A stretch of DNA of 64,000 bases from Nitrospirota bacterium (GTDB lineage Bacteria > Nitrospirota > UBA9217): contig CAVVUN010000015.1 of NCBI GenBank assembly GCA_963751455.1, positions 1,408,001 to 1,472,000 on the forward strand, given 5' to 3'. Below are positions 42,475 through 61,780 of this stretch, piece by piece. Position 1 is the first letter of the stretch. The number at the start of each line of letters is the position of its first letter. Made by a program: the position numbers and the translations under genes. The notes under the pieces were generated by a model. It did not search any database. It was given only the letters and a program-made list of their open reading frames with translations, and was not told the DNA's origin.

Positions 42475-42534
42475 GCGGAAAACCGCGAAAGGCGGTAGAG
42501 CAGAAGCGGGTAGGGGAAAAATCCTCAATGATCA

Positions 42535-42867
42535 ATTGGGACACGGAAGAATCGGATTTACCGGATAAAAATCTGATAATCCTAAAAACGGCATTTGAAC
42601 ACGGATGAACACGGTAACAGCGGATCAAAACAATGTGATAGAGCAAAAAGCCATCTCGCCTTTTGGGTGAATCCATTACTGTTCGTAACTTCCTATAAAT
42701 CCGTGTTGATCAGATTTTATCCGTGTCCAACTGCTTTTTTCAGGATAATTCAATTGCCTTTTGACGAATTTGTGACGAATACAATCGTCTTTTCACGTTT
42801 CCGGACAAAAGTGAGCCACTGGGGCTTGGTGGTTTATCCGCGAAAATCCGCGTTTATCTGCGTCCAA
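42535..42867. repeat. 9-mer-armed hairpin(s) of the ACACGGAT/ATCCGTGT family
   Basis: TTGGGACACGGA...TCCGTGTCCAA at 42535-42730; an extra arm at 42833-42867. Confidence 0.7.
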
Positions 42868-42873
42868 GAGCCG

Positions 42874-44850
42874 TTACGATTTTTTTGCCCCTGACGGCTT
42901 TCGCTCTCCCGACGTTGCTTTAGCGGTTTTACCTGTTGTTTTGGGCTTCAATTTCGTTTCTATTGGTTTGGCCTTCACCTTCGCCTTCGTTGCCCTGGCC
43001 TTTTTCGGCGCTTCACGCGGCTGCACAATCTCCTTTACTTTCCTTACGATCGCTTCTGCGGATATTTCCTCGTAATCCAGGAGTTCAGCCGGCTTGCCGC
43101 TTCGCGGCATTGCGCGAACCGCGAGCGAATAGACAGGCACCGGGTTCTGTGCGAGCGAAGTCATGACCGCTTCCCCGATCCCGCCCGCTGCAAAATGGTC
43201 CTCAACCGTTATCAAGGCCCCGGTCTCGTCGGCCGCGGCCCGCAGCGTACTTTCGTCCAGGGGTTTGACGCTGTACAGGTCGATCACCCGAATGGATATG
43301 CCTTCTTTTTCCAGTATGTCATGGGCCTTGAGCGCCTCATGCACCGTTATTCCCGCGGCAATGATTGCGGCGGCATCCTGTTTGTCCGATTTTAAAACTT
43401 TGCATCCGCCGATCGGGAACAGCTCGTCATTCCCGTAAAGGATCGGGGTATCTTTTCTCGTGGTGCGGAGGTACGCGATGCCCCGGTGCTCCGCCATTGC
43501 TTCAACCAGTTTTTCCGCTGATACCGCGTCCGAAGGATACAGGACTACGCTGTCCAGCAGCGTCCTGAACATCGCGATGTCTTCCAGGCCCATCTGCGAG
43601 GCTCCGTCCTCCCCGATCGAAACACCCGCGTGAGAACCGCAGAACTTGATGTTGGCATCGGAGTACTGGCTCATGCGGATCTGATCAAAGGCCCTGGTAA
43701 GGAAAGCGGCGAAGGTTGAAACAAACGGAATTTTGCCGCGGATGGAAAGGCCCAGGGCGCTCCCGACCATGTTCTGCTCCGCAATGAACATCTCGAAGAA
43801 CCGTTCCGGATATTTTTTCTGGAATATTTCGGAATACGTCGAATTACTCACCTCTCCGTCGAGCACTACCATGTTCGGGAAACGGGGATGGATTCTCTCG
43901 AGCGCCGTGCCGTACGCATGCCGCGTGGCCACAGGTTTGTCCGGCGGGAAGGAAACAGGCTTTGCCGAAGCAGGTTTTTGTTCTGCAGGTTTCAGGTCTT
44001 CCGGTTTCGGCACGGTTCCTCTGGCGTTTTTATCTATGGGGCCCAGTTCCTCCAGAGCCGCCGGGAGGTCCTCTTTTTTCAGCGGTTTGCCGTGCCAGCC
44101 GTTCTTGTCCTCGACGATTGAAACGCCTTTTCCTTTTAATGTTTTCGCTATAATCATCACAGGCTTGCCCGTGATCTGCCTTGCCAGCTTATACGCTCCA
44201 ACGATCTGCGTCATGTTATGCCCGTCCACTTCGATCGTTTCCCATCCAAAGGCCTGCGCGCGGTTTTTGTACACGTACAGGTTATGGCCGTACATGGTCT
44301 CGCCCCGCTGCCCCCACCGGTTAACGTCAAGAATGCCGATCAGGTTGTCGAGCTTATAATACGCGGCAAGCTGCATGGCTTCCCACTGCGAACCTTCGGC
44401 CATTTCGCTGTCGCCCAGCAGCACATAGGTGCGATAGGGCAGTTTATCGATATATTTCGCGTTCATTGCCATGCCGACGCCGATCGAAAGGCCCTGGCCG
44501 AGCGACCCGGTTGCCGCCTCGGTATATTTGAACGCGCGCGTGGGGTGCCCTTCCAGGCTGCTTCCGAACTTCCTGTAGGTCATCAATTCCTGCTCACTCA
44601 CTTTTCCCGCTGCCGCCCAGAGGCAATAGAAAAGCGGTGACGCATGGCCCTTTGAAAAGATCAAACGGTCATTGTTCGGATGGCCCGGGTTGCCCAGGTC
44701 GTACGTAAAGGAACCGCCGAAGACGAGGCCCGTCATCAGGTCCGCCGCGGACATCGAAGACGTGGGATGTCCGGAGCCGGCGTTGGTAGACATGACGAGG
44801 CTGTAATAGCGGATCAGTTTGGCAATGCTTTCGAGGTTGTTGTTCGTCAT
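42874..44850 (-). CDS. tkt: transketolase with Lys-rich C-terminal tail
   Basis: SGHP, SKGHA, TGSLGQG, GDSE.AEG, IAEQNM, GEDGASQ. Confidence 0.95.
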   Translation of the reverse strand: MTNNNLESIAKLIRYYSLVMSTNAGSGHPTSSMSAADLMTGLVFGGSFTYDLGNPGHPNNDRLIFSKGHASPLFYCLWAAAGKVSEQELMTYRKFGSSLEGHPTRAFKYTEAATGSLGQGLSIGVGMAMNAKYIDKLPYRTYVLLGDSEMAEGSQWEAMQLAAYYKLDNLIGILDVNRWGQRGETMYGHNLYVYKNRAQAFGWETIEVDGHNMTQIVGAYKLARQITGKPVMIIAKTLKGKGVSIVEDKNGWHGKPLKKEDLPAALEELGPIDKNARGTVPKPEDLKPAEQKPASAKPVSFPPDKPVATRHAYGTALERIHPRFPNMVVLDGEVSNSTYSEIFQKKYPERFFEMFIAEQNMVGSALGLSIRGKIPFVSTFAAFLTRAFDQIRMSQYSDANIKFCGSHAGVSIGEDGASQMGLEDIAMFRTLLDSVVLYPSDAVSAEKLVEAMAEHRGIAYLRTTRKDTPILYGNDELFPIGGCKVLKSDKQDAAAIIAAGITVHEALKAHDILEKEGISIRVIDLYSVKPLDESTLRAAADETGALITVEDHFAAGGIGEAVMTSLAQNPVPVYSLAVRAMPRSGKPAELLDYEEISAEAIVRKVKEIVQPREAPKKARATKAKVKAKPIETKLKPKTTGKTAKATSGERKPSGAKKS

Positions 44851-44870
44851 AGGAACTCCTTTTAAATGTA

Positions 44871-45007
44871 AGTATCAGAGTATCAGAGTGTCAGATTCAG
44901 CGAACAGCAAAAGAGTCAGCGAACAGCCATAAAGCTGACGGATGAGTATCAGAGTATCAGAGGACTGCTCGGCTTTGACACGTTGACTCTTTGATTCTTT
45001 GACACTT
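44871..45007. repeat. 8-mer-armed hairpin (AGTATCAG/TTTGACAC) between nuoN and tkt
   Basis: Tandem AGTRTCAG units and a complementary arm. Confidence 0.75.
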
Positions 45008-45008
45008 G

Positions 45009-46436
45009 CTATTTCACACTCTGCACTATTCGTTCTATCACCTCTATCACCGGCGTCGGGTACACGCCGAGCCAGATCAGAACGATCGCAAGCGCTGTAA
45101 GAATTGCGCTGCCTGTCCGAGAAAGTGATGCCGTTGTAATTCCGCTTTCCTCGGGAGTCGAGTAGACCGCAATGATGATTCTCAAATAATAGAACAGCCC
45201 GATTGCGCTGTTGATGAGCAGAATGATAACGAGCATCCAGAGGGCAGACCCCACACCGGCCGCGACCACATAGAATTTTCCCACGAAGCCGGCAGTAAGC
45301 GGAATGCCGGCAAGCGAAAGCAGCATGGCCGTGAAGATACCCGCAAGCCAGGGCCTGCGCCACGCAAGCCCGGCATACTCTTCCATGCTGTCAGCGTCCC
45401 GGTCAGCCCGGGAGAGTACGGTGACGACCCCGAACGCGCCGAGCATAGTCACGAAATACGCCGCCAGATAGAATGCGGCAGCGCTCATCGCGAGCGGACC
45501 TGATGAAAGAAGTGTCACGAGGAGATACCCCAGGTGCGAAATGGAGGAATACGCGAGAATGCGCTTTACGTTTTTCTGAAGGAGCGCGAGCAGGTTTCCG
45601 GCGAACATTGAGGCAACGGCTATGATGAACAGGATAACGAAGAGCGGGCCGTACGCCTGGACGTCAAGCCGCGAAAAATAACGGAATACGACAGCGAATA
45701 CTCCGCCCTTCGAGACAGTGGCAATAAACGCGCTGACCGGGGCAGGCGCGCCTTCATACACGTCGGGTGTCCACATATGGAAGGGGACGACTGCCAGCTT
45801 GAAGCCGAGCCCCGTGATGATCAGCCCGATTCCGGCGGTGAACGGCACGCTCTGCAGGGACGCAGCCTGAGAGGCGATCCGGTACAGTTCCATGCTGCCG
45901 GTTTCCGCATATACCAGAGCCATGCCGAACAGGATGAAGGCTGAAGAAACCGCGGCCAGGATAAGATACTTTACGCCCGCTTCGATGCTTTGCTCCCGGT
46001 GCCTGAGGTACGCTGCCATAGCGTACAGCGACACGCTCAGGATTTCGAGGCCCAGGAACAGGGAAGCAAAATGCGTGCTTGTCGTGAGAACGGCGGTGCC
46101 GAGCGTTGCAAAAAGCAGGAGCAGATAAAATTCCTCATGGTGCCCGGCCTGAGAGTTAAGGTATGAATAGGAGAGACACGCTACGCAGAAGCTCGCGAAG
46201 AATATCAGTCCCATATAATAGAGGGCGAAGCGGTCTACGACCAAAAGGGGCGTGACCATGCGAGGCGTCAGCGAGGTTATAAACGGGAGCGAAGCCAGAG
46301 CAGCCAGGAGGCCTGCAAGCGTGAGCATGTTCGCGACAACGTGACTCCGGTAAAAGGCGATCACCATCATGAGAACGATTGCGGTTCCGGCCGTGATGAT
46401 GAGGGGGAGCAGGGCGATGATATCAATGAAGTCCAT
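45009..46436 (-). CDS. nuoN: NADH-quinone oxidoreductase subunit N
   Basis: EAGVKY, FKLAVVPFHMWTPDVYEGAP. Confidence 0.95.
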   Translation of the reverse strand: MDFIDIIALLPLIITAGTAIVLMMVIAFYRSHVVANMLTLAGLLAALASLPFITSLTPRMVTPLLVVDRFALYYMGLIFFASFCVACLSYSYLNSQAGHHEEFYLLLLFATLGTAVLTTSTHFASLFLGLEILSVSLYAMAAYLRHREQSIEAGVKYLILAAVSSAFILFGMALVYAETGSMELYRIASQAASLQSVPFTAGIGLIITGLGFKLAVVPFHMWTPDVYEGAPAPVSAFIATVSKGGVFAVVFRYFSRLDVQAYGPLFVILFIIAVASMFAGNLLALLQKNVKRILAYSSISHLGYLLVTLLSSGPLAMSAAAFYLAAYFVTMLGAFGVVTVLSRADRDADSMEEYAGLAWRRPWLAGIFTAMLLSLAGIPLTAGFVGKFYVVAAGVGSALWMLVIILLINSAIGLFYYLRIIIAVYSTPEESGITTASLSRTGSAILTALAIVLIWLGVYPTPVIEVIERIVQSVK

Positions 46437-47967
46437 TTCGCGCCTCCTGCTCATCGATCCGAAGTTCATTCGCGCTGGTTGTCGCGGCGGCTGAAGAAGC
46501 GCCGGATTGCAGGCGGCCCAACACAGGGGCCGTCGTGTTCAATGCCGGCATCGGGTAAAGTCCCAGCCAGAAGATTGCAATAATAAGCGCGGCCATTATT
46601 CCAGTCTCGCGGCCGGACAGGTCAACGATTTTCCGGATCGCGCGCGGTTGTCCATGAAATGCGCGCTGCACCATCCAGAGCGCATATATTGCGGCCAATA
46701 CGAGCCCGAGCGCAGCGAACAGCGTCATGAGCGGACTGGTCCTGAAGGACCCGAGAAGAACCATGAATTCCGCCACGAAATTGCCGAAGCCGGGCAGGCC
46801 GAGTGAAGCGAGGCCGAAGACGAGGCCGATTGCGCTCAGGCGCGGTACCACTGACCACATGCCGCCCATATCGTCCATGTCGCGGGTATGGATTCGTTCC
46901 TGAATCATGCCGACGATGATGAACAGGGCGCCGGTGCTCACGCCGTGCGCAAGCATCTGCATGATTGCGCCCTGCAGCGAAGCCGCGTTCCCTGCAAAAA
47001 TGCCGAGCAGCACAAACCCCATATGGCTGACGCTGGTGTAGGCCACGAGCCGTTTAAGATCGGTCTGGGCAAAGGCAAGGACCGCCCCGTAGATGATGCC
47101 GATGACGGCGACCACCATTACTGCCCTGCTTACGCCTGCGGCCGCTCCGGGAAAGAGCGGCAGCACGAAACGGAGAATTCCGTAAGCGCCGGTCTTGAGC
47201 AGCAAACCCGCCAGAATAACACTGCCCGCGGTCGGGGCTTCGGTGTGTGCGTCCGGCAGCCAGACATGAAAGGGAACAGCCGGCAGCTTCACCGTAAAGG
47301 AGATGAGGAAGCCGAGCATGAGCCAGAAGGCGGTTTTCGGCTCGATCTTCGTTCCGAGGAGCAGGGAGTAGTCAAAGGTCATCACACCCGTTGTCCGCAG
47401 ATGGACCATGGAAAGGGCCAGGATCGAAAGAAACATCAGCAGGCCGCCGGCCTGCGTGAAGATGAAGAATTTGAGCGAAGCGTAGACCCGGTTCTCATGT
47501 CCCCAGATGCTGATCAGAAAATACATGGGCACGAGCATCAGTTCCCAGAAAAAATAGAAGAGAAACAGGTCCAGGGAAAGGAAGACGCCCATAATGCCGG
47601 AGAGTATTGCCATCAGGTTCATATGGAAGAAGCCGACGCGGCCGCGGATTTCCGTCCAGGAGCAGATTACCGAGATGATGCCGAGAAAGAGCGTAAGCGC
47701 AACGAACACGAGGCTCAGGCCGTCGATCGCGAGATGCAGACCTATGCCGAGTCCGGGGATCCAGGGCTGGTTCAATTCGACAAGCCAGGTCCCGCGGTTG
47801 AGCGCTGCCTGCGATGAAGGCCGCAGCCACAGCGATACCAGCAGCACCAGGTCGAGTGCAAGCGCGGCAAGCGAAATCCAACGGATCAGAACGTTGTTCC
47901 GCCTGCCCAGTAGCCACGCGGCTACTCCGCCTATCAGCGGTATGATTATCAACCAGGCAAGGATCAT
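46423..47967 (-). CDS. nuoM: NADH-quinone oxidoreductase subunit M
   Basis: FWELMLVPMY, PFHVWLPDAHTEAP. Confidence 0.95.
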   Translation of the reverse strand: MILAWLIIIPLIGGVAAWLLGRRNNVLIRWISLAALALDLVLLVSLWLRPSSQAALNRGTWLVELNQPWIPGLGIGLHLAIDGLSLVFVALTLFLGIISVICSWTEIRGRVGFFHMNLMAILSGIMGVFLSLDLFLFYFFWELMLVPMYFLISIWGHENRVYASLKFFIFTQAGGLLMFLSILALSMVHLRTTGVMTFDYSLLLGTKIEPKTAFWLMLGFLISFTVKLPAVPFHVWLPDAHTEAPTAGSVILAGLLLKTGAYGILRFVLPLFPGAAAGVSRAVMVVAVIGIIYGAVLAFAQTDLKRLVAYTSVSHMGFVLLGIFAGNAASLQGAIMQMLAHGVSTGALFIIVGMIQERIHTRDMDDMGGMWSVVPRLSAIGLVFGLASLGLPGFGNFVAEFMVLLGSFRTSPLMTLFAALGLVLAAIYALWMVQRAFHGQPRAIRKIVDLSGRETGIMAALIIAIFWLGLYPMPALNTTAPVLGRLQSGASSAAATTSANELRIDEQEARNGLH

Positions 47968-48000
47968 AAATTATTACCCACCTCAAAGGCGAAGAATATT

Positions 48001-48099
48001 TCGCGCAAAGTCGCCAAGTCGCAAAGAAAGGCAGAATTACCTTGATTTATTCAAGACTGGAAACGTATCTTTGCTCCGCGTCTTTGCGGCTTTGCGCGA
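48001..48099. repeat. 8-mer-armed hairpin (CGCAAAG/CTTTGCG) between nuoL and nuoM
   Basis: TCGCGCAAAGTCGCCAAGTCGCAAAG...CTTTGCGGCTTTGCGCGA. Confidence 0.75.
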
Positions 48100-48142
48100 G
48101 TCCATTTTCCGGTGCTACTTCCGTGATGATCCAATCAGCGAC

Positions 48143-48204
48143 TGAACTTGATCCGGCATCCAAAACGCTACGAAAAGCTGGATTCCGGCTTTCGCCGGAA
48201 TGAC
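48143..48204. repeat. REP/dRS3-like palindromic repeat
   Basis: ...GGCATCCA...CTGGATTCCGGCTTTCGCCGGAATGAC. Confidence 0.6.
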
Positions 48205-48240
48205 GATCTTTGGGTTTATTGGCATTTTAAAATATAGATG

Positions 48241-50145: not shown

Positions 50146-50155
50146 CAAAGGCTTT

Positions 50156-50230
50156 ATCCGCAGATTTCGCAGATCGAATGAATACAAGAACTGACTCGTT
50201 TAATCTTTAAAATCTGTGTAATCTGCGGAT
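50156..50230. repeat. 9-mer-armed hairpin (CGCAGATT family) between nuoK and nuoL
   Basis: ATCCGCAGATTTCGCAGAT...ATCTGTGTAATCTGCGGAT. Confidence 0.8.
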
Positions 50231-50239
50231 TATGGTGCA

Positions 50240-50551
50240 TCAGCCCTTCATTCTGCTTGCAGCGTCCGCATCGAGGGTGTCAAATCTGTGATACATCTGC
50301 AGCACCAGCGCAAGACCCACGGATACCTCGGCAGCAGCCATGGTCACGATAAATATGAACATAACTTGCCCGTCAGCCTGTGCCCATTTGGCGCCTGCCG
50401 ACACGAAGGCAAGGCCGACTGCGTTCAGCATAATTTCGACCGACATGAGCATAAATACGATGTTCCGACGGACCAGCACGCCGATCAATCCCAGAACAAA
50501 AAGGATTGCAGCAAGCATGAGGCCGTGTTCCATGGGGACGTTTGCGATCAT
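50240..50551 (-). CDS. nuoK: NADH-quinone oxidoreductase subunit K
   Basis: RRN, EIMLN, AAAE.SVGLAL. Confidence 0.95.
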
Positions 50552-50568
50552 TGAAACTCCGGGAGAAT

Positions 50569-50668
50569 GAATTGTAAATTGTAAATATTAAATTGCAAAA
50601 CGCAAAGTGATTTGATTGAAATACCTTTTCACTTTAAAATTTGCAATTTGCACCTTGCAATTTGAAAT
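50569..50668. repeat. 7-mer-armed hairpin (TGCAAAN family) between nuoJ and nuoK
   Basis: AATTGTAAATTGTAAA...TTTGCAATTTGCACCTTGCAATTTGAAAT. Confidence 0.8.
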
Positions 50669-50670
50669 GC

Positions 50671-51162
50671 TTAATGCTTATGCGGCCTGCCCAGATGGTA
50701 TGCGCCGATCAGCCCTGCGAGCAAAAGCATGGATGCCAGCTCGACACCGAGCACGTAAGGGCCGAACAAGGCTATGCCGATCTGCTTCGGCCCGACAGCA
50801 TTTCCGGACGCCATTTTGGGGCCCCCGATCAATACATATATAAGCTCGAGAGCGAGCACCAGCGCAAGGAGCGATGGCCCGAGCCATACCCGAGGGCTCA
50901 GCCACAGCGATTCCTGTTTCGCAGCTTCCGGGCCGATGTTCAGCATCATAATTACGAAAACGAAGAGAACCATGATTGCGCCGGCATAGATGATTACTTC
51001 CAGGGCCGACGCAAACGACGCGCCGAGGGACAAAAAAACGAGCGCCACGGCGAGCAGGGAAACGATGAGATAGAGCAATGCATGCACAGCGTTCTTCCCG
51101 CTCACGACCATGAAGGTCGCCAGTACGGCAACGACAGCTGATATGTAGAAAAGAAGATTCAT
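50671..51162 (-). CDS. nuoJ: NADH-quinone oxidoreductase subunit J
   Basis: IIYAGAIMVLFVFVIM. Confidence 0.95.
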   Translation of the reverse strand: MNLLFYISAVVAVLATFMVVSGKNAVHALLYLIVSLLAVALVFLSLGASFASALEVIIYAGAIMVLFVFVIMMLNIGPEAAKQESLWLSPRVWLGPSLLALVLALELIYVLIGGPKMASGNAVGPKQIGIALFGPYVLGVELASMLLLAGLIGAYHLGRPHKH

Positions 51163-51197
51163 TGAATACTCAGTTAAACTTCACGCAATACCGTCTA

Positions 51198-51302
51198 GCC
51201 GCAAAAATGCCACAAAAATCGCAAAATTAATCTTGCGCCTCTTGCCTGCACCCAGTGCTTACGAGTGCGCTCGCGCGAATGCAGGGTGCGCCTTTTTGCG
51301 GC
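51198..51302. repeat. ~9-mer-armed hairpin between nuoI and nuoJ with a nested CCTGCAC...GAATGCAGGGTG insert (51245-51288)
   Basis: GCCGCAAAAA...TTTTTGCGGC arms; right arm interrupted by the insert. Confidence 0.75.
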
Positions 51303-51331
51303 AAATATTATTTTATCCTTTGTAAAATACC

Positions 51332-51847
51332 TTACGGCAGCAAACTCTTCACATCCACAACCGGCTCTTCTTCGATCCCTTCGCCCTTGCCCTTTCCTCC
51401 GATCGGGATTCCGGCTACCTTGTAATAATTATACCCGTGATACTTGCCCTGTCCGTCGATCAGCAGGTGCTCCTTCTCGTAAACCATTGACTGCCTTTTG
51501 TACTCGCTCATCTCGTATTCGGGGGTAAGCTGAATCGCGTATGTAGGACAAGCTTCCTCGCAAAACCCGCAAAAGATGCAGCGCGAAAAATTGATCCTGA
51601 AGAAGGCGGGATAGCGTCTTCCGGTTTCGTCGGTTGCCGCCTGGAGCGCAATGCAGTCGACCGGGCACGCAACCGCGCAGAGATAACAGGCGACGCATCG
51701 TTCCTTGCCGTCGGGATCCCGTGAAAGGATGATCCGTCCGCGCCAGCGGGGCGGGAGTCGCTGTTTCTCTTCCGGATACTGGATCGTCACCCTTTTCCGG
51801 AACGTGTGCAATAACATACCACCGATGGTTTTTATTATACTCAGCAT
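51332..51847 (-). CDS. nuoI: NADH-quinone oxidoreductase subunit I
   Basis: [24 protein letters not shown]. Confidence 0.95.
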
Positions 51848-51853
51848 GGGATC

Positions 51854-52807: not shown

Positions 52808-55596
52808 GGCCCGGCCTCCTGAATATTCTTTACAGCCCTTGCTATCGTTCCCCTGAGAGGAAGATTGGTCGTATACCCTTCCGGCAGCCCGTGGGGCAGG
52901 GCAGCGAGCCCCGAGGGAAGGCCTTGAAGGTGTTTTACCGCAAAAATATATGAAGAGGCATTTAGCTTGACGAGGACTTTTTCTCCTTCATGCGCCTTGA
53001 GTTTCATCGCGTCCTCCGGGTTCAGCCCCACATACGGTTTGGGTGACAGTTCTGCTATCCCCGGTGACAATGCGCTCAGCTCCTCGGACCCGAATATGTG
53101 AAAAAACGGGATGAACAGCCATGAATCCTTGCGGGGCGTAAACGCAAGAGGAATTTTTTTAAAAAAGGACAGTGCTCCTGCGGATCCGGGCTCAAGCAGC
53201 CTCCTTCCCGGATCTCCTCCCTGCAGCGGTCCGCCGACTTCCGCCTGGAACTTATTCATGGCCTGGGGCGAGTTCCATCCCGGCGCCCAGAAGCGCGGAA
53301 TCAGGCTGGAGGGCGGCTTTCCCGGAAAGCCTTCCATTGTAAACGCTAGGGGCGTGTCCGGATCTTTCGCCGGTTTCGGTTCAAAAACGGTTTTATCTGC
53401 GAACATTGCCGTGCGTCCGCTGTACCGGTGCGGCTTGCGCGGTATTTTCATTCCCGCGATACGAAACGCGGCAGAGGGCGCTATGTCAGTGATCCCTCTG
53501 AATACCGGCATTGCCAGAGCCAGGGCATTTATCACATTGTCCAAGCCTTCCCAAGCGCTGTTGGAAGACCGGCCCGATACGCGCAGGATGTCCCTGATCC
53601 AGCGCCAGCTCTCGCTGATTTCGCCAGCCGGAACAAATGCCTGGTAAAAACGCTGCGCTCGACCTTCGTTGTTTATAAGAGTGCCGTCGGCTTCTGCGAA
53701 TGCAGCTGCGGGAAGGACGATGTTTGCTTTTGCCGCGGTCCGGGTTGCCAGATTATCGATCACGATGACATGCTTTATTTTGGCAAAAAAATCGTTTACT
53801 GCGTTCTCATCAGCGCGCCGGTAAAGATCATTTTCCAGAATAACGGCAGTATCGGCCTTGCCTTCCTTAACCTTCTGGAACGCTTTATCAAGGCTGTTGG
53901 CTCCCATCAGCCCCAGGCCCATGGTGTTGCATTCAGGAACCGCATAGGTGAGACAGCAGATCCTGTCGGGTTTAGACAATGCCCATGCCACATTTGCCGC
54001 GGCCTGAATGATTGCATCGCTGCCGCATCCCACGCCCGAAACAATAAGAGGCCGCTGGGCCTTCCCAAGGTCCTGCGCGATAGAAGCTGCAAGGAAGCGT
54101 GACGCATCATCAAGTCCCGAAACGGGAGGCATCGCGCTGTTCAACTCGTGTGCCACAGCGAAACCGAGCCGCGCAATATCGTCAGGCGCAGCGCGATAGA
54201 CGCGGGCTGCCAGGTCATCAAGCCTGGTCGGATAGGGCGCTGCAATCGAGAGAGCCGGCTTGACGCCCTGTGCTGCATTGCGCACTGCGGCGTCGTCCCA
54301 GAGGGGAATACCCTGCTTCGCGGCAGTTTCGAATTCCTTGTGCCGGGCTGCCTGCCTGAGCGCAAGAGCGAGCAGGGGCGCTGTATTGGTCGCGTCCTCT
54401 CCGAGTACTAATATTGCGTCGCACGATTCTACCTCCCGAAGGGAAGGAGAGCGGGCAGGTCCATTTCGCAGAATATCGATAATCAGGGATACAAGGTTTG
54501 CATCGTTGTGGAACATGCCTGTGTAGAAGTTTTGCTCTCCAACCAGCGTGCGAAGGGCGAAATTCGATTCCAATGAGGCGCGGGGAGATCCGATGCCGAT
54601 GATGCCTTTGCTTGCGGACAGGATCTTACTGATCTCCTCAAGGGCTGTCTCCTTAGGAACAGGCTGTACCCCCTCACCCCGGCCCTCTCCCGCAGGAGGA
54701 GAGGGTGTAGCCCCTCGATCATGTAGCACGGGGAAGGGGGATTTCAGGAGAGCGTTTCTGATCCTCCGCTCGCTGTTCACGAACTCGTACCCGAAGCGGC
54801 CGCGGTCGCAGAGAAAATAACGGTTTACTTCTCCATTATATCTTGTGCGGATACGCCGGAGTTCGCCGTAGCGTTCGCCCGGTATGGTATTGCATCCAAC
54901 TCCGCAGTGAACGCAGATTGAAGGCGCTGTCTGCAGGTCCCATTTTCGTGTATAGCGCTTCTGGAAGGTCTTGTCCGTAAAAACGCCGGTAGGACAGATT
55001 TCGACCAGATTGCCGCTGAATTCATTTTCGAGTACGCCGTCCTTTTGCCGGCCGAAATAGACATGATCATGGCAGCCGAAAACGTCAAGGTCGCGCCCGC
55101 CCGCGTAATCCCGGTAATACCGGACGCAGCGGTAGCACTGAATGCAGCGGTTCATCTCATGCGCCACAAAAGGACCGAGATACTGGTTCGGGTACGTGCG
55201 CTTCCTGAATCTCGTCCTTCGATAAACATGCCCGGTCATAACGGTCATATCCTGCAAGTGGCATTCCCCGCCCTCGTCGCAGACCGGACAGTCGTGAGGA
55301 TGGTTCAGCATGAGCAGTTCTACGATGCTCTTGCGGAACGACTTTGCCTCTGGGTCCTCGATCGAGATGCGTATGCCTTCTGTTGCAGGAGTCATGCAGG
55401 ACATGACAATCTTGCCGCGAGTGTCCTTCTCGTCTTTAAACTGTTTCACCGCGCATTGCCTGCAGGCGCCCACGGAATGCATGGCCGGGTGCCAGCAGAA
55501 ATACGGGATGTCGAAGCCCAGGGAAAGGCAAGCGTGCAATAAATTTTGCCCGGGCTTGACTTGGTAAGGCTTGTTTTCGATATAAATGGTAATCAT
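52804..55596 (-). CDS. nuoG: NADH-quinone oxidoreductase subunit G with an in-frame palindromic insertion
   Basis: CWH...[33 protein letters not shown]. Confidence 0.95.
54669..54745. repeat. palindromic repeat inserted in-frame in nuoG
   Basis: CCCCTCACCCCGGCCCTCTCCCGCAGGAGGAGAGGG...GGGGAAGGGGGATT; related remnant at ~21892-21922. Confidence 0.7.
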
Positions 55597-55611
55597 GATT
55601 AAACCGAATCA

Positions 55612-55793
55612 GCCACGGATGAACACGGATACACACGGATAACTACTTCAATTTTTGGGAATGCGCTTCCACGTGGATTCGGCATCCACACATTTATTTT
55701 CATCCGTGTCAATCCGCCTGCACACAGCGTTTCGAGCCTGCGGCTAGCGCTTATGAGTGCAAAGCGCGAATGCAGGGTGTGTCCATCAGTGGC
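55612..55793. repeat. 9-mer-armed hairpin (ACACGGAT family) between nuoF and nuoG with nested insert 55717-55779
   Basis: GCCACGGATGAACACGGATACACACGGAT...ATCCGTGTCAATCCG[insert]TGTCCATCAGTGGC. Confidence 0.8.
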
Positions 55794-55800
55794 AAAGACT

Positions 55801-57075
55801 CTATTTTTTCCACGGGCATTTCTTCTCTTTAATATGCCGCTCAAAATCTTCCTTGAACATTTTGAGCCCGCTCCTGAGCGGCTCCATGGCGCCCGGAGCA
55901 AGCGCGCAGTAAGTCTTGCCGAGCCAGAGGTTGTCGCCGAGCATTTTGAGCTTGTCCATGTCGTCCGGCTCGCCCATGCCGTTTTCGATCGCTGCCAGGA
56001 TCCTCGTCACCCACGGCAGGCCCTCACGGCAGGGAGTGCACCAGCCGCACGATTCGCGGGCAAAGAAATATTCGAGATTATACAGCGCGGCAACCGGGCA
56101 TGTTTTGTCGTCGAGTACGATCATCGTCCCCGTGCCCATTCTGCTGCCGGCCTTCATGACCGAGTCGAAGTCCATTTTAACGTCGAAATGCTCCCTGCCG
56201 AGAAATTCGGTGGATGCGCCGCCGGGGATAAGGGCTTTGAACCCGTAGCCCTCCTTCATGCCTCCCGCATGCTCTTCGAAAATCTCCCGGATCGTCGTAC
56301 CCATGGGCAGCTCCCATAATCCGGGCTTCTTAACCCGCCCGCTCACACCGTAGATCTTTGTTCCGCTGTCCTCTGAACGGCTCAGTCCTCTGTACCATTC
56401 AGCGCCGTTGCGGATGATACCGGGAATGTTGCAGAGCGTCTCCGTGTTATTAACAATGGTCGGTTTACCCCATAAGCCGCTCACCTGCGGGAACGGAGGC
56501 TTCGACCGCGGCTGCGCGCGTTTCCCTTCAAGCGCGTTCAACAGTCCTGTCTCTTCTCCGCACATGTAGCGCCCCGCGCTTACATGGACGTGCAGCTCCA
56601 GGTCATAGCCGGACCCGAATATATTTTTACCGAGAAAGCCTTTCCGATAGGCCTCCTGTATCGCCGTAGCCAACCTTTTTTCAGAAAGCTTATATTCATA
56701 GCGCAGAAATATGTAGGCAATTCCTGCCCGGATCGCAAGGGCGCTTATGATCATTCCCTCGATGAGCAGGTGCGGATTTTTTTCTAGCAGCATCCGGTCC
56801 TTGAACGTGCCCGGCTCCATCTCGTCGGCGTTCGCGATCAGATACCTCGGTTTCGGCGCGTCGTCTCCCATCGGAACGAAGCTCCACTTCATGCCGGTAT
56901 TGAAGCCGGCGCCGCCGCGGCCGCGCAGGTTCGAGTTCTTTACGAGCTCCTGGATTTCTCCGGGAGCCATGGTTACGGCTTTGCGGGCCGCCTCGTAGCC
57001 GCCGGTCCTCTCGTATTCCGGGAGGGTCAAAGCCCCTCCATCGGCTTTCATATGTTGTGTAAGCGGACGTTCCAT
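55801..57075 (-). CDS. nuoF: NADH-quinone oxidoreductase subunit F
   Basis: GRGGAGF, NADE.EPG, YMCGEET, ESCGWCTPCREG. Confidence 0.95.
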   Translation of the reverse strand: MERPLTQHMKADGGALTLPEYERTGGYEAARKAVTMAPGEIQELVKNSNLRGRGGAGFNTGMKWSFVPMGDDAPKPRYLIANADEMEPGTFKDRMLLEKNPHLLIEGMIISALAIRAGIAYIFLRYEYKLSEKRLATAIQEAYRKGFLGKNIFGSGYDLELHVHVSAGRYMCGEETGLLNALEGKRAQPRSKPPFPQVSGLWGKPTIVNNTETLCNIPGIIRNGAEWYRGLSRSEDSGTKIYGVSGRVKKPGLWELPMGTTIREIFEEHAGGMKEGYGFKALIPGGASTEFLGREHFDVKMDFDSVMKAGSRMGTGTMIVLDDKTCPVAALYNLEYFFARESCGWCTPCREGLPWVTRILAAIENGMGEPDDMDKLKMLGDNLWLGKTYCALAPGAMEPLRSGLKMFKEDFERHIKEKKCPWKK

Positions 57076-57103
57076 GTATGATGTTAAACTCCCGAATCCT
57101 TTT

Positions 57104-57190
57104 TATCCGCAGATTACGCAGATGCCACAGATTAAGCCAAACTCGAATTATGGTTCTAAAATCTGCGTCCCTCGGCGTAATCTGCGGATA
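57104..57190. repeat. 9-mer-armed hairpin (CGCAGATT family) between nuoE and nuoF
   Basis: TATCCGCAGATTACGCAGAT...ATCTGCGT...GTAATCTGCGGATA. Confidence 0.8.
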
Positions 57191-57220
57191 GATTCTGTAA
57201 AGAGTTCCTGAATAGCAATG

Positions 57221-57685
57221 TTATTTCAATCTTCCCAATATCTCATCCAGCCTCCGGGGCGTAAGCTCGCCGTAGACCTCGCGGTCGATCATCATCGCGG
57301 GCGCCTGGTCGCACACACCGAGGCAGGGGATGGGAACAAGAGTGAACTTGCCGTCGGCACTCGTCCCTCCCCACGTGATTCCAAGACGCGACCTCAGATG
57401 ATCAAACACTTCCTGCTGCCCGACGATCCAGCAGCTGATGGTATTGCAGATATGGATTACATGCCTGCCGACCGGTTTGCGGTATATAAGATTGTAGAAC
57501 GTGGCAACGCTGTCCAACTCATCGGGCGTCATGTCCAGCATGCCGGCCACGTCTTTCAGTCCATCTTCGGAGACCCATCCGCGGTGCCGCTGAACGATCT
57601 TCAGCGCATCCACGCATGCAGCCCGCTTGTGCTCGTATTGCTTGAGCTCTGCCTCGATTTCCTGTTTTTCCTGTTCGCTTAGCAT
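57221..57685 (-). CDS. nuoE: NADH-quinone oxidoreductase subunit E
   Basis: VATFY, CNTISC, CLGVC. Confidence 0.93.
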   Translation of the reverse strand: MLSEQEKQEIEAELKQYEHKRAACVDALKIVQRHRGWVSEDGLKDVAGMLDMTPDELDSVATFYNLIYRKPVGRHVIHICNTISCWIVGQQEVFDHLRSRLGITWGGTSADGKFTLVPIPCLGVCDQAPAMMIDREVYGELTPRRLDEILGRLK

Positions 57686-57692
57686 AAAAATA

Positions 57693-57757
57693 TTATCCGC
57701 AGATTTCACAGATTTTCGCAGATTTTAATCCGAGTAATCTGCGTAATCTGTGGATAA
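57693..57757. repeat. 9-mer-armed hairpin (CGCAGATT family) between nuoCD and nuoE
   Basis: TTATCCGCAGATTTCACAGATT...AATCTGCGTAATCTGTGGATAA. Confidence 0.8.
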
Positions 57758-57761
57758 AAAA

Positions 57762-59498
57762 TCACCTATCCACATCCCCCATGATAAAATCGATGCTCCC
57801 CAGGATTGCGATCAGGTCCGAGATATTCCGTCCGCGGCACATCTTCGGCACCACCTGCAGGTGCGGGAACGAAGGGGTTCGGATGCGCGTGCGATAAGAC
57901 TGGGTATTCCCGTCGCTGATCAGGTAATAGGTATTGAAGCCCTTTGCTGCCTCCGTACCGAACGCTGCCTCTCCGGGAGGGATCACCGGTCCCCAGCTCA
58001 CATTCAGAAAGTGATCTATGAGCGTTTCAATATCGAACATGGTTTTGTCTTTACGGGGCGGCGTGGCGAGGGGATGGTCCGACTTCGACGGACCGGGAGG
58101 CATGTTATTCAGGCACTGCTCGACAATGCGAAGGCTCTGCCTCATTTCCTCAACGCGGACGAGCGCGCGGTCATAACTGTCGCCGTGCGTTGCGGTCGGG
58201 ATGTCGAACTCGAACTTGTCGTAACCCGAATACGGCCTCTTCTTGCGGACGTCCCATTCGAATCCGCACGCCCGCAGATTCGGCCCGGTTACCCCCCACT
58301 CGATCGCTTCATCGCGCGTCAACGCACCCACGCCTCTGGTGCGGGCCTTGACGATGCGGTTCTGCATTATCAGGCGGTCGTACTCTCGCAGCCTGGCCGG
58401 CATATAATCCAGAAAATCGCGGACCAGCCTCTCCCATCCGTTTGGAAGGTCTGCAGCAACTCCACCTATACGGAACCAGCCGGGGTGCATGCGGAACCCG
58501 CAGACAGCCTCGACAATCGTGTAAAAGCGCTCCCGGTCATTGAAGGTGAAGAACAGGGGCGATAACTGGCCCAGGTCTCCGGCAAACGTGCCGTACCATA
58601 TGAGGTGGTTCGCGATCCGGTAGAGTTCCGCAAGCATCACCCTTATCACTTTGGCCCTGTCGGGCACTTCTATTCCCGCGAGCTTTTCCACCGCGAGTAT
58701 ATACGGGAACTCGTTCAGGACTCCGGCAAGGTAATCGATCCTGTCCGTGTACGGAATATACGTATGCCATGTCTGACGCTCCGCCATCTTTTCCTGCGCG
58801 CGGTGGTGGTAGCCGATGTCCATGATCGCATTCACCACTTCTTCGCCGTCGAGCTCGAGGATTATGCGCAGCACTCCGTGCGTGCCCGTGTGATGAGGCC
58901 CGAGATTCAGGAACATGTAGTCGGTTCCGTTCTTCCTGCGAGGAAGTCCCCATTCCTCGGGATGGAACTCCATGGCCTGCTCCTCCTTTATTTCCTTGTC
59001 TTCCGACAGGCTGAACTTGCTGAGTTCAGTCCGGCGCGCAGGGTGTTCTTTGCGAAGCGGGTGGCCTTTCCAGGTTGCGGGCATCAGGATCCGGCGCAGA
59101 TGGGGATGGCCTTCGATGTTAATGCCGAACATGTCCCATACTTCACATTCATACCAGTCGGCTGATTGCCAGATGCCGGTTATGGACTTGACGGACGGTT
59201 TATCGCCTTTGAGGGAGACCTTGATCCTTACGTCGCTGTTGCGGTCAAAAGAGAGGAGGTGATAGACTACGGTAAAGTCGCTATCGGGCTGTTCCGGCCT
59301 GTTCGAACGGACCCGCTCGTCGATTGCGCTCATATCATACAGCATCTTGTACGGCGCGTCGGCCTCTGTTTTAAGGTATCTCAGGATTTCGTGGAGTGTG
59401 GCCTGGCCGGTCCAGAACGTCGGGATTTCATCACGGGTGGCCTGTGGCGTTATTGCTGACTCGCCGAATCGTCTTTGCAATTCCTGGATTATATCCAT
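57762..59498 (-). CDS. nuoC: fused NADH-quinone oxidoreductase subunit C/D
   Basis: WDMFGI..GHP.LRRI, GPHH..THGVLR, terminal GDVDR. Confidence 0.95.
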
Positions 59499-59512
59499 CA
59501 AGGCCTCAAGAT

Positions 59513-59599
59513 GAGTTGCAGTATCAGAGTGTCAGAATAGCAAGGTGTTGTCGTATCACTCGACCCTTGACGCTATGATACTTTGACACTTTGGCACTC
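59513..59599. repeat. 8-mer-armed hairpin (AGTRTCAG family) between nuoB and nuoCD
   Basis: AGTATCAGAGTGTCAG...TGATACTTTGACACTTTGGCACTC. Confidence 0.78.
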
Positions 59600-59604
59600 G
59601 GCTC

Positions 59605-60213
59605 TCATATCTTATCGGGAGGCGTCAGTTCCGTTACCTGCTGTCTCTTTTCACGCTTTAAATCGCGCATAACCGGCATCGGCCTTTTTTCCAGGCCCTG
59701 CGGACCGACCTTCCAACTGAGCGGACGCCTTTCACTCCCTACGAGGTCCTGAAGCAACAGCAGCCCCTCCATCAGCGTTTCCGGTCGAGGCGGACAGCCT
59801 TGAACATAAACGTCGACCGGCAGGAAGGAGTCTACCCCCTGGACGACGCTGTACACATCGAACATGCCTCCGGAGTTGGCGCAGGAACCCATTGAAATCA
59901 CCCAGCGCGGCTCCATCATCTGCTCATAAAGCCGCTTGACCATGGGAACAGTCTTTATGAAAACAGTGCCGGCAACCACCATGACGTCCGCCTCGCGCGG
60001 CGTGCTGCGGAGCACTTCCGATCCGAACCTCGCGATATCGTATTTACTCGTCAAACTGGTTGCCAGCTCTATGTAACAGCAGGAGAGCCCGAAGTTGAAG
60101 GGCCAGATCGAGTTTTTTCGCCCCCAGGCGACCAGGTCCTGGAGCGTGGTAAGAATTATGTTTTTCTGCGCGGTATCGCCTTCTTGCCCGGGTTTTGAAA
60201 GAGAGTAGTTCAT
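59605..60213 (-). CDS. nuoB: NADH-quinone oxidoreductase subunit B
   Basis: [24 protein letters not shown]. Confidence 0.95.
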
Positions 60214-60225
60214 AGATTAATCCTT

Positions 60226-60316
60226 ATTGCAAAATGCAAATTGCAAAGTGCAAATATTAAATTTGAAAAAAGATCAGGTTTTAAACTTTGCAATTTGCAA
60301 TTTGAAATTTTCAATG
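60226..60316. repeat. 7-mer-armed hairpin (TGCAAAN family) between nuoA and nuoB
   Basis: ATTGCAAAATGCAAATTGCAAAGT...ACTTTGCAATTTGCAATTTGAAAT. Confidence 0.8.
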
Positions 60317-60318
60317 AG

Positions 60319-60702
60319 TCACTTTGTACCGCTCCAATCCAGCGCTTTTATCCTCCAGAGATAGGCGAGGGCTGCGGCAAGAATGCTGATGAAGATGACC
60401 ATCTCAACATAGCCGGACCAGCCTGTCTCCCTGATCGAGATCACCCAGGCATATACGAACACAGCTTCGAGATCAAAGATCACGAAGAACATCGCTATGA
60501 GATAAAATCGGATGTGAAACCGCATTCTGGCCGTGCCTGTCGCAGCTACCCCTGATTCATAGGGTTCGGCCGTCTGCCTGTCCCTGTGACGTTCGCCCAG
60601 AAAATACGAGATGAAGATCATCATCGCAACAAGAATGACGACTGCCGCTGAATATATGCCAAGCGGCCAAAGAGACGCTCCATTATGCATATCCTCAATC
60701 AT
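60319..60702 (-). CDS. nuoA: NADH-quinone oxidoreductase subunit A
   Basis: PYESG, FYLIAMFFVIFDLE, ALDW. Confidence 0.95.
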   Translation of the reverse strand: MIEDMHNGASLWPLGIYSAAVVILVAMMIFISYFLGERHRDRQTAEPYESGVAATGTARMRFHIRFYLIAMFFVIFDLEAVFVYAWVISIRETGWSGYVEMVIFISILAAALAYLWRIKALDWSGTK

Positions 60703-60708
60703 GCTAAA

Positions 60709-60736
60709 AGAATAGCATAGTGGTTCTGAAAGTCAA
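60709..60736 (-). promoter_or_regulatory. candidate sigma70 promoter of the nuo operon
   Basis: TTGACT-16 nt-TATTCT with extended TG. Confidence 0.5.
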
Positions 60737-60931
60737 GGTATCGATTTCATTCAGAATTTCACCTGTTGACAAACGATGACAAGGCTGATAGTCTAAGCCT
60801 AAATGGTCATTCTCCGTAGTACTTGAAGGCCGGTCCCGACAAATATTCTCAAGTCAATTCGAACCACGATCGACGACAAGGAATTCGCTTGCCTGATATC
60901 CCGATAATCAATCCATGAAAGGAGCACAGTA

Positions 60932-61666
60932 ATGAAACCTGTATTCGCAATTGCATTATGTTGTCTGATTGCCGTAAGTCCCGCAGCAGCAGAGGAGAAG
61001 AAGCCGGAGGAGAAGAAACTGGAGCTCAAAACACAGAAGGAAAAAGCAAGTTATGCCATCGGTTTGGACATGGGAGGAAGTCTCAAGGCAAATGACATCG
61101 ATGTAGATGCCGAAACACTCATGCGAGGAATCAATGACGCGCTTTCAGGGGCGAAGCCGCTCATGACGAGCGACGAAATCAAGGAATCGATCACGGCCCT
61201 CAAGAACGACCTCCAGGCGAAACAGCAGGAAAAGATGAAAGTGGCAGGGGAGAAGAACAAAAAAGAGGGAGAAGCGTTTTTGGCTGCGAATAAGAAAAAG
61301 AAAGGCGTGAAAACGCTTGAGAGCGGTCTTCAGTATAAAATAATAACAAAAGGCACCGGCACAGGCGGGACGCCCAAAGCGACGGATACGGTGACCGTCA
61401 ATTACCGCGGCACCCTTATCGATGGGACGGAGTTCGACAGCTCCTATAAACGGGGTCAGCCGGCGACATTCCCGGTAAATGGTGTCATACCGGGCTGGAC
61501 CGAAGCCTTGCAGCTTATGAAGGAAGGATCCAAATGGGAGCTGTATATACCTTCGAAGCTTGCCTATGGCGAAAAAGGGGCGGGAAATACGATCGGGCCT
61601 AACGCAGTCCTCATTTTCGAGGTCGAACTCATTTCGATTAATAAATCAGCGCAGTCACCGCATTAA
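60932..61666 (+). CDS. FKBP-type peptidyl-prolyl isomerase (Mip/FkpA-like)
   Basis: Signal peptide, SYAIG, SGLQY, FDSS, VIPGWTEAL, LAYG, FEVEL. Confidence 0.95.
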   Translation: MKPVFAIALCCLIAVSPAAAEEKKPEEKKLELKTQKEKASYAIGLDMGGSLKANDIDVDAETLMRGINDALSGAKPLMTSDEIKESITALKNDLQAKQQEKMKVAGEKNKKEGEAFLAANKKKKGVKTLESGLQYKIITKGTGTGGTPKATDTVTVNYRGTLIDGTEFDSSYKRGQPATFPVNGVIPGWTEALQLMKEGSKWELYIPSKLAYGEKGAGNTIGPNAVLIFEVELISINKSAQSPH

Positions 61667-61707
61667 ACATTTTTTTCGCCTAAAACCGGAAATCCGGAAA
61701 AGTTTCA

Positions 61708-61780
61708 GCCACAGAGAACACAGAGGGAAACAGAAAAACTCTTCGTAGCTTTTCTCTGAGCCCTCTGTGAACTCTGTGGC
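61708..61780. repeat. 9-mer-armed hairpin (CACAGAG family)
   Basis: GCCACAGAGAACACAGAGGG...CCCTCTGTGAACTCTGTGGC. Confidence 0.8.

Follow-up and report, generated by a model that had tools for sequence, protein, structure and literature searches.

Tandem-armed hairpins in the nuo operon of a Nitrospirota bacterium as probable gene-less remains of small mobile cassettes

Several described systems resemble the elements reported here, as far as the available parts of the cited papers show. Ssn nucleases with their NTS/SRM hairpins consist of a small single-domain nuclease gene with inverted hairpin repeats on both sides, accompanied by many gene-less repeats, and the authors propose nuclease-repeat pairs and compare the layout to a mobile element (PMC11893778). 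In RAYT/REPIN systems, several non-autonomous extragenic hairpin flavours are each tied to their own single-copy protein gene (PMC3116915), and REPINs, TIRtrons, and CGTC REPs, like the elements described below, are nested in one another (PMC3116915, PMC3733652). ORF-bearing intervening sequences of 23S rRNA are sporadic and horizontally acquired, and carry an S23p four-helix ORF between terminal inverted repeats that form a long stem (PMC4990558). Orphan intergenic heptamers, such as TAACTGA in Beggiatoaceae (PMC4679880) and GGGAATC in Xanthomonas (PMC4692102), form 7-nt tandem repeats between co-directional genes and are under-represented between divergent genes; they often occur as inverted pairs in Xanthomonas, and have been noted inside ribosomal-protein operons. 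A literature search, which table-level or supplementary mentions could escape and in which subscription coverage was thin, found no description of the cassette class presented here, and the mention of GxxExxY that it did find was incidental in the available text.

The elements in this study differ from each of these systems. Ssn proteins are GIY-YIG nucleases, whereas the cargo proteins here are assigned by sequence to the PD-(D/E)XK (GxxExxY), DUF559, or four-helix-bundle types, and the arms, built of tandem 7-10-mers, form a single long stem by pairing across the gene; the five short GIY-YIG loci viewed were all without tandem arms of this type. As with REPINs, a non-autonomous extragenic hairpin doublet is dispersed as a unit; however, no HUH tyrosine transposase lies within the arms (the genome holds 33 Y1_Tnp matches), the tandem-arm consensus lacks a GTAG/CGTC tag, and the gene-bearing form itself sits at many different junctions. 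Gene-bearing relatives do hold a four-helix ORF within terminal inverted repeats, as in the 23S rRNA, but the elements of the window (the whole 64,000-nt stretch of DNA analysed) all lie between or in protein genes and none in an rRNA gene, their arms are periodic, and their stems show no mRNA-strand bias. For the orphan heptamers, regulatory or quadruplex roles are proposed and no cargo gene is linked in the available parts of those papers (PMC4679880, PMC4692102), whereas the present elements comprise several coexisting periods and families with ties to cassette genes.

The genes nuoA, B, CD, E, F, G, H, I, J, K, L, M, and N, followed by a transketolase gene (tkt), lie throughout on the minus strand. 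The gaps between them are 105 nt (A-B), 106 nt (B-CD), 76 nt (CD-E), 145 nt (E-F), 204 nt (F-G), -4 nt (G-H), 6 nt (H-I), 169 nt (I-J), 119 nt (J-K), 103 nt (K-L), 273 nt (L-M), -14 nt (M-N), and 158 nt (N-tkt). The preliminary description placed a hairpin at nearly every nuo junction, and repeat-armed hairpins do occupy ten of the thirteen junctions from nuoA to tkt, the one at N-tkt being decayed; the tight junctions G-H, H-I, and M-N are free of them, as had been stated. This run is the densest among about 350 repeat-armed hairpin spacers genome-wide. Whole-spacer folding z values of the nuo spacers range from -0.9 to -4.9, and those of the single hairpins on the mRNA strand, with element boundaries picked post hoc, from -2.3 to -8.4 in eight of the ten, with -1.9 at B-CD and about -1 at N-tkt. 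Rfam gave no family match across 42400-61900.

The arms belong to several families (coordinates carry no strand unless one is given). The A-B hairpin (60223..60318), with 7-mer AATTGCA-type arms, and the B-CD hairpin (59513..59599), with 8-mer GTRTCARA arms, are gene-less forms of four-helix-bundle cassettes; arms like the former flank four-helix genes in loci L233, L238, and L240, and the latter type flanks one in L194. The 9-mer CGCAGATT arms form the CD-E (57693..57757), E-F (57104..57190), and K-L (50156..50230) hairpins and flank GxxExxY genes in L031, L048, and at G000:C15:1252989, and the E-F hairpin, together with its loop, is matched by an 87% twin at G000:C1:275645. The F-G hairpin (55612..55793) has 10-mer CACGGAT arms and contains, within one arm, a small palindromic module (55716..55778, minus strand; 78 motif copies in the genome); another such module (51244..51287, minus strand) lies within one arm of the I-J hairpin (51198..51302, CGCAAAA arms). 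The ACACGGAT family is indeed tandem-armed as first described, with its repeat period corrected to 10 nt. The J-K hairpin (50569..50662) has 7-mer arms, and the L-M hairpin (48001..48099) has 8-mer CGCAAAG arms, a type which also flanks GxxExxY genes at G000:C2:422881-423342 and in L034, L044, and L047. The L-M spacer holds in addition a CGTC-tagged, REP-like palindrome with a decayed partner (48140..48207, minus strand), recognised from its sequence, assigned to the CGTC-type REP class following the available part of PMC3733652, and the sole member of that class among the window elements. The N-tkt element (44871..45012, 8-mer GTRTCARA arms) retains two left arms and one right arm. A hairpin downstream of the FKBP gene (61708..61780) has 9-mer CACAGAG arms, which also flank GxxExxY genes in L016 (J-K) and L024. 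Inside nuoG, alignment with relatives reveals an in-frame relic of DUF559-type arms (54669..54740, minus strand), which encodes about 20 additional residues and is missing from seven of the thirteen relatives aligned.

Our preferred reading, to which we give a probability of roughly 0.6, is that the nuo hairpins are gene-less remains of small cassettes, a selfish DNA whose cargo proteins are each predicted to recognise their own arms. In an intact cassette, a single gene of about 125 codons is enclosed by two arms in inverted orientation, each built from tandem units of 7-10 nt. ORF-bearing versions were found, and they enclose the GxxExxY and four-helix-bundle genes that had been guessed: six of the seven arm families enclose one or the other elsewhere, the exception being the CGCAAAA family (I-J), whose gene-bearing copies were sought without success. 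Apart from the GxxExxY loci, the long versions that G000 has of these seven families turned out to be just nested repeats or ordinary genes with arms paired around them by chance. Of 33 GxxExxY genes, 23 lie between inverted arms (22 with a period of 8-10); the same is true of 25 among 30 four-helix genes (21 having a period of 7; mismatched-pair control 57/870) and, in a further set of 60 four-helix genes, of 54 (42 having a period of 7). The arm period tracks the cargo type, 7 nt for four-helix and 8-10 nt for GxxExxY genes. On the GxxExxY tree, arm labels set by a crude pattern cluster (16 changes against 20.2 when shuffled, 0/200), a clustering that is inflated since orthologous copies from one locus account for several rows.

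The cargo genes match the profiles PF13366, PF04480, and TIGR02436, and, in genomes sampled from the host's family, GxxExxY genes occur in 20 of 25 and four-helix-bundle genes in 43 of 61. Seventeen GxxExxY protein sequences share residues E34, D73, E83, and K85 without variation, and the structural model (pLDDT 91.7) has Cas4, Hjc, and lambda exonuclease as its closest folds, with just one match below E 0.001. In two close pairs, cargo pN is 0.14 against a saturated pS. The solved relatives of the four-helix protein are all uncharacterised, and the protein itself has no known catalytic role.

These gene-bearing versions in six of seven families largely refute the idea that slippage and template switching created the hairpins on the spot, without a mobile ancestor, which we regard as very improbable. 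The units are short and degenerate and most elements are unique in sequence, as such an origin would have it, but the same arms surround particular gene clades in other genera, twins that include the loop are present at unrelated loci, and broken cassettes (F-G of L004 and J-K of L007) link the states.

The same junctions were classified in 17 related nuo loci. Among 175 junctions, 61 are tight, 71 have a plain spacer, 30 a hairpin, 11 a gene-bearing element, and two a broken cassette, where shuffles gave 3/505. Relatives do have empty sites; every one of the thirteen nuo junctions is tight in one relative or more, and operons of other phyla are tight at most of them. The nearest related nuo operon is 80-82% identical in protein, which is too distant for a base-level empty-site alignment, and a NuoE scan for closer relatives (67 metagenome and 34 genome loci) reached about 65% identity at best, leaving the exact empty nuo site not alignable. 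The 11 gene-bearing junctions carry seven GxxExxY genes (PF13366, PDDEXK_3), three DUF559 genes (PF04480), and one gene without a match, all 11 in the operon's direction. At F-G, a GxxExxY gene is present in L007, L008, L014, L015, and L082, and the junction is tight in L006 and L012. The F-G cargos pair as L008 with L015 (78%) and L007 with L014 (72%), against 51-56% in cross pairs, but the host tree unites L014 and L015 (100/99), and both cargo pairings are rejected (p-AU 2.5e-12 and 1e-6). Therefore, it is likely, judging from this conflict among four cassettes, that F-G cassettes were swapped laterally between lineages, although ancient allele sorting could also produce it.

Genome-wide, tandem motifs are far above chance (CGCAGAT doublets number 228 and heptamer doublets 124, against 1 and 2 in shuffles), and a detector of periodic-arm hairpins marks 453 spacers against five in shuffled spacers. 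Repeat-armed hairpins favour co-directional spacers (296/2718) over divergent ones (14/473); for bare hairpins the values are 7.4% and 2.3%, whereas spacers with IS-ended MITEs show 2.8% and 2.7%. Twins of bare hairpins, loop included, occur at unrelated loci: among 285 bare hairpins of at least 60 nt, 22 are matched at 85% or more, one of them at 100%, with the likeness stopping at the hairpin base. Bare hairpins are mostly unique, a 90% twin being found in just 17 of 306, and a cargo remnant is detectable in only two of 346 spacers. Empty sites in relatives, ORF-bearing versions, loop-inclusive twins, and the co-directional preference all support the non-autonomous mobile behaviour proposed at the outset. 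Target duplications did not materialise: at bare-family sites of five families there was no excess of 3-6-bp direct repeats, and none was found at twin boundaries. Nor did the proposed targeting of highly expressed operons hold, as the ribosomal-protein operon is mostly spared, with about four to five of about 30 rpsL-rplQ junctions filled (by eye) against four consecutive ones in atp.

The element downstream of tkt illustrates how insertion sequences (IS) enter the picture. What had been described as a single hairpin at 42535 is actually a 164-nt MITE nested in an older armed element (42537..42868), with its left arm at about 42537-42575 and right arm at about 42834-42867. The MITE (42581..42744) has a CACGGAT-armed interior, is flanked by a 5-bp duplication (42576-42580 and 42745-42749), and belongs to a type with 55 copies of 160-170 nt; at G000:C2:320466, the left arm of the older element is joined to the right flank with a single copy of the 5-mer. 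Its ends match a 1624-bp IS1380-family element present in four copies (16/17 nt at one end), two of which have a matching duplication. Matching terminal inverted repeats, the 5-bp duplication, and multiple near-identical copies come together in 42581-42744; the IS1380 label fits this segment alone, and its interior is a captured tandem-armed hairpin. A first IS1380 group (10 copies) was ruled out as partner of the MITE, as its ends differ.

At least three IS-like MITE families carry tandem-armed hairpins: IS1380-type paired ends (75 of 96 with a 5-bp duplication), GTAAC-ended pairs (32 of 41 with an 8-bp duplication), and about 10 copies bounded by TTAA. Below 4 kb, no long GTAAC-ended element turned up, and the search for an autonomous partner of the TTAA-bounded MITE gave a single long copy, interrupted by an unrelated transposase gene which we take to be IS110-like. 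The IS-end comparison covered the ends of four multi-copy DDE elements. The largest recent hairpin bursts are IS-driven. It might be proposed from this that the cargo genes are passengers, that palindromic cassettes spread only via host recombination and capture between IS ends, and that the arms serve for autoregulatory binding or as protective structures rather than as mobility signals. The duplications at IS1380-type and GTAAC ends, the non-homology of the cargos, and the frequent persistence of one cassette at one locus across genera fit this proposal, which we nevertheless consider rather unlikely. None of the three MITE end types occurs in nuo spacers, and nuo stays at 8/13 junctions by the detector after their removal; bare twins stop at the hairpin base without duplication; single cargo clades sit at unrelated junctions (e.g. 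I-J of L015 vs L035/L036); and the GxxExxY nuclease residues are invariant.

A host function at the RNA level was also suggested. Under such a reading, the hairpins would be RNase III sites or stabilisers, retained by the host to divide the nuo transcript into segments and adjust subunit levels. The stems, of 25-45 bp, are situated within a polycistronic transcript, the genome has an RNase III gene, nuo is a real hotspot (8/13 junctions, 0/500 permutations), and RNase III excises a four-helix cassette from 23S rRNA, as given in the available part of PMC4990558. This explanation is improbable, however. G-U and A-C mismatches on the mRNA strand are balanced (237:248, p 0.65), and host RNA tuning is therefore unsupported; sense folding is no better, and arm families interchange freely at one site. 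Among 296 elements, U-rich tails number 26 sense vs 33 antisense, so that the U-rich tail on the transcribed strand by which intrinsic terminators are defined is not a feature of these elements, in agreement with the earlier remark that U-tails are lacking. The complexes of relatives are encoded with tight junctions, and Complex I contains one copy of each subunit, so that the suggested tuning of stoichiometry is not supported. Translational coupling was dropped as well, since the Shine-Dalgarno frequency downstream of elements (0.46-0.53) equals that at other junctions (0.46-0.53). Overall, it is likely that the hairpins are more a barely described selfish DNA swapping at gene junctions than an operon-tuning device.

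How such cassettes move can be proposed only tentatively. In one possible scheme, they are transposase-free, junction-homing cassettes in which unrelated small proteins, namely GxxExxY and DUF559 nucleases and four-helix-bundle proteins, read their own arms, cut or chaperone the single-stranded hairpin, and drive insertion downstream of stop codons and allele replacement between lineages. The GxxExxY nuclease is predicted to cut the single-stranded hairpin and thus start insertion, and arm-to-arm deletion would remove the gene and leave a hairpin that may still be copied in trans. Recombination in the conserved genes on either side, probably following DNA uptake, would swap whole junction alleles between lineages; ComEC is encoded in the genome. 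Selection would purge insertions in genes and promoters, and therefore survivors would lie behind stop codons and pile up in long conserved operons like nuo. Ordinary IS transposases would separately amplify some hairpins as passengers inside MITEs, and any effect of the hairpins on mRNA would be a by-product. Since three unrelated cargo families share one design, the host could do the moving.

GxxExxY and four-helix-bundle genes are common, unexplained protein families, and the 7-10-nt intergenic repeats have so far been read as regulatory signals with their origin unexplained. The cassette life cycle can be seen in all its stages in the nuo operon, at sites that are fixed and can be aligned, and nuo loci supply concrete protein-arm pairs together with evidence of cassette swapping between lineages at the same junction. 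IS transposases, moreover, recruit tandem-armed hairpins into ordinary MITEs, and caution is needed that such hairpins are not read as host regulation. If true, the junction-homing reading would account for what two large orphan protein families do and for the orphan 7-10-nt repeats of intergenic DNA, and would make new sequence-specific hairpin nucleases available.

In the window, a complete nuoA-N operon followed by the transketolase gene (tkt) lies on the minus strand, and ten of its 13 junctions are 76-273 nt long, each with an imperfect inverted repeat whose arms consist of two to four tandem units of 7-10 nt. The hairpin is absent from the G-H, H-I and M-N junctions, where the gaps are -4, 6 and -14 nt, respectively. 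The observation in the preliminary description that inverted repeats fill nearly all nuo junctions except the tight or overlapping ones still stands. Folding of the mRNA strand gave z values of -2.3 to -8.4 for eight trimmed elements, the boundaries of which were picked after inspection, -1.9 for the B-CD element and close to -1 for the N-tkt element, which is decayed. A palindromic module of ~45-60 nt (51244-51287 and 55716-55778; 78 motif copies in the host genome, G000) inserts into arms of many different repeat families and is apparently a parasite of hairpins. The C-terminal tail of transketolase (42874-43050) is lysine/alanine-rich and histone-like, and extends ~50 residues past the family model.

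Nineteen nuo loci of the same family were fetched and 17 were scored, the fragmentary L018 and L019 being excluded. Their 175 junctions comprise 61 tight junctions, 71 plain spacers (many of which, as judged by eye, retain half arms in a decayed form), 30 hairpins, two broken cassettes, and 11 gene-bearing junctions, a cassette being one small cargo gene between two inverted arms. GxxExxY genes occur at F-G in L007, L008, L014, and L015, at I-J in L015, and at H-I and J-K in L016; DUF559 genes occur at CD-E in L008 and at L-M in L008 and L010. One small unknown ORF occupies B-CD in L008 (2161-2427); it encodes a hydrophobic product of 89 aa without a Pfam match and lies between GxxExxY-type arms, and therefore cargo of an unrelated kind can sit within such arms. 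In the nearest operon, that of L004, both I-J and K-L are tight, in contrast to the hairpins at these junctions of the window, and F-G has a broken GxxExxY gene. The same junction holds different repeat families in different genomes, and most junctions in nuo operons of other phyla are tight. Similar operons come from many named Nitrospirota genomes, and thus the host probably belongs to this phylum. Overall, positions vary, ORF-bearing forms exist and junctions are favoured, all three in agreement with the earlier suggestion that the hairpins are mobile elements. Within nuoG itself, an in-frame relic of DUF559-type arms is found (54669-54740); related inserts at the same loop are present in L007, L010, L014, L015, and L004, and in none of seven other relatives.

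Gene calling in G000 by a custom script, which reproduced the window's genes and missed some small ones, gave 5199 genes (78% coding). Periodic-arm hairpins were detected in 453 of 3789 spacers, compared with 5 in shuffled spacers. Removal of spacers with any of three MITE end types left 346 bare elements (gene-less hairpins without IS-type ends), 19 of them still within wider repeats. Among the spacers tested, these occupy 296 of 2718 between co-directional genes, 36 of 434 between convergent genes, and 14 of 473 between divergent genes (p = 2e-9 for co-directional versus divergent; p = 0.11 for co-directional versus convergent), and spacers with IS-type ends, the internal control, showed no orientation bias (2.8% versus 2.7%). 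The nuo operon has the densest hairpin run in the genome, with 8 of 13 junctions scored by the detector (reached in 0 of 500 permutations) and a genome average of 7.4% for co-directional junctions; therefore, an extreme case had been described. High expression, proposed as the targeting rule, is not predictive alone, since the atp operon has four hairpins consecutively whereas about 4-5 were counted by eye across the roughly 30 junctions of the rpsL-rplQ region. In the rplN-rplX spacer (contig C15:1002541-1002736), a ~65-nt repeat that belongs to another family occurs three times in direct orientation. At C1:11300-11590 and about 8 more loci lies a composite repeat longer than 280 nt, in which hairpin families are nested. 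The genome also has 33 Y1 tyrosine-transposase matches, many of ~300 aa, and a second, distant nuoK-like gene (37%; C15:1500940), which points to another complex-I-like operon.

Longer copies enclosing ORFs, the existence of which had been raised as a question, were found for six of the seven repeat families, with GxxExxY or four-helix-bundle cargo. The heptamer family encloses four-helix genes in L233, L238, and L240, and the AGTRTCAG 8-mer family does so in L194; the CGCAAAG, CGCAGATT, CACGGAT, and CACAGAG families have GxxExxY-bearing copies, and no gene-bearing copy of the CGCAAAA family has been found so far in G000 and related loci. Most of the ten GxxExxY and nine four-helix matches in G000 lie between inverted tandem arms, and within the family as a whole such arms are present on both sides of 23 of 33 GxxExxY and 25 of 30 four-helix genes. 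The arm period tracks the cargo, being 8-10 nt in 22 of 23 GxxExxY cassettes and 7 nt in 21 of 25 four-helix cassettes; among 60 further four-helix loci, hand-picked from the remaining listed matches, 54 have arms, 42 of them of period 7. Arm labels placed on a tree built from 33 GxxExxY proteins change 16 times compared with 20.2 in shuffles (0 of 200); the labels are crude, and some of the proteins are orthologous copies at one locus. The GxxExxY proteins match PF13366 with E34, D73, E83, and K85 invariant, and the best structural matches of a predicted model are Cas4, Hjc resolvase, and lambda exonuclease, one match being below E 0.001. The sole solved relatives of the four-helix protein are uncharacterised. 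Two paralogous pairs of putative ferrochelatase-like and protoporphyrinogen-oxidase-like genes (C12:21596 and C2:30548) each have a GxxExxY cassette, placed at the same junction in both pairs. The arms differ between the two, and one is a pseudogene.

The element at 42535, previously grouped with the other hairpins, differs from them by containing a 164-nt IS1380-type MITE, of which 55 copies of 160-170 nt exist, most 97-100% identical. The ends of this MITE correspond to those of a 1624-bp element of the IS1380 family that occurs in four copies, 75 of 96 paired ends of this type have a 5-bp duplication, an uninterrupted site is seen at C2:320466, and sister MITEs with the same ends hold other arm families. 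A MITE of 168 nt with GTAAC ends (47 loci, e.g. C1:204792-204959) has CGCAGATT arms as its interior, and 32 of 41 pairs of its ends show an 8-bp duplication; its 12-nt ends also adjoin other arm families, and no partner transposase was found in G000. A TTAA-bounded MITE (about 10 copies) encloses a further arm family. Therefore, IS transposases amplify some hairpins as passengers, and this is the main support for the rival explanation that hairpins and cargos are carried along and do not move by themselves. A four-helix cassette at C2:320604-321052 is broken by the GTAAC MITE, and just upstream lies an uninterrupted copy of the 42537-42790 flank.

As for movement of the bare hairpins, 22 of 285 are matched elsewhere by a twin with 85% identity or more, loop included, and the likeness ends at the hairpin base; the E-F element of the window is among them (87%), and one twin is 100% identical. 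Target duplications, which the insertion-element proposal had led to be sought, were not seen in the five bare families examined. Most bare hairpins are unique in sequence and a cargo remnant is kept in only 2 of 346 bare spacers, and thus most insertions are old. At F-G, the cargos of L008 and L015 share 78% identity and those of L007 and L014 72%, compared with 51-56% for cross pairs. In the host tree of six Nuo proteins, L014 groups with L015 (100/99), and each of the two cargo pairings is rejected (p-AU 2.5e-12 and 1e-6). The simplest reading of this conflict is lateral replacement at a fixed junction; sorting of ancient alleles is another possible cause.

The stems might also have been selected by the host as RNA, as in the earlier proposal of signals tuning subunit stoichiometry, in which case G-U pairs should exceed A-C pairs on the mRNA strand. 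However, the counts are 237 to 248, U-rich tails are not commoner on the sense side (26 versus 33), and sense-strand folding is no better, all of which argue against host-tuned signals. RNase III, which is encoded in G000, cuts the 23S intervening sequence, as outlined in PMC4990558, and by analogy it might cut the nuo junction stems incidentally.

Overall, it appears somewhat probable (about 0.6) that these are selfish cassettes. Cassette anatomy, polymorphism, the arm-cargo association, and the tree conflict are observed, and we infer arm recognition, cutting, and the insertion route as follows. Each cargo protein would recognise its own arms, and GxxExxY would cut the single-stranded hairpin; deletion between the arms would remove the gene and leave a hairpin, which could be copied in trans, and junction alleles would be exchanged through recombination in the conserved flanking genes. 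ComEC is present in G000. The Ssn/SRM system, as outlined in PMC11893778, works likewise but with a different protein family, and so does RAYT/REPIN, as sketched in PMC3116915, although the repeats here lack its tag. The 23S intervening sequence shares the four-helix cargo and the long stem but differs in location, and the orphan repeats presented in PMC4679880 and PMC4692102 have similar arms. No description of the cassette class was found in a literature search. The nuo hairpins are real and represent an extreme case within a widespread class that has barely been described, and this class belongs with the nuclease-plus-hairpin-repeat systems as a variant.
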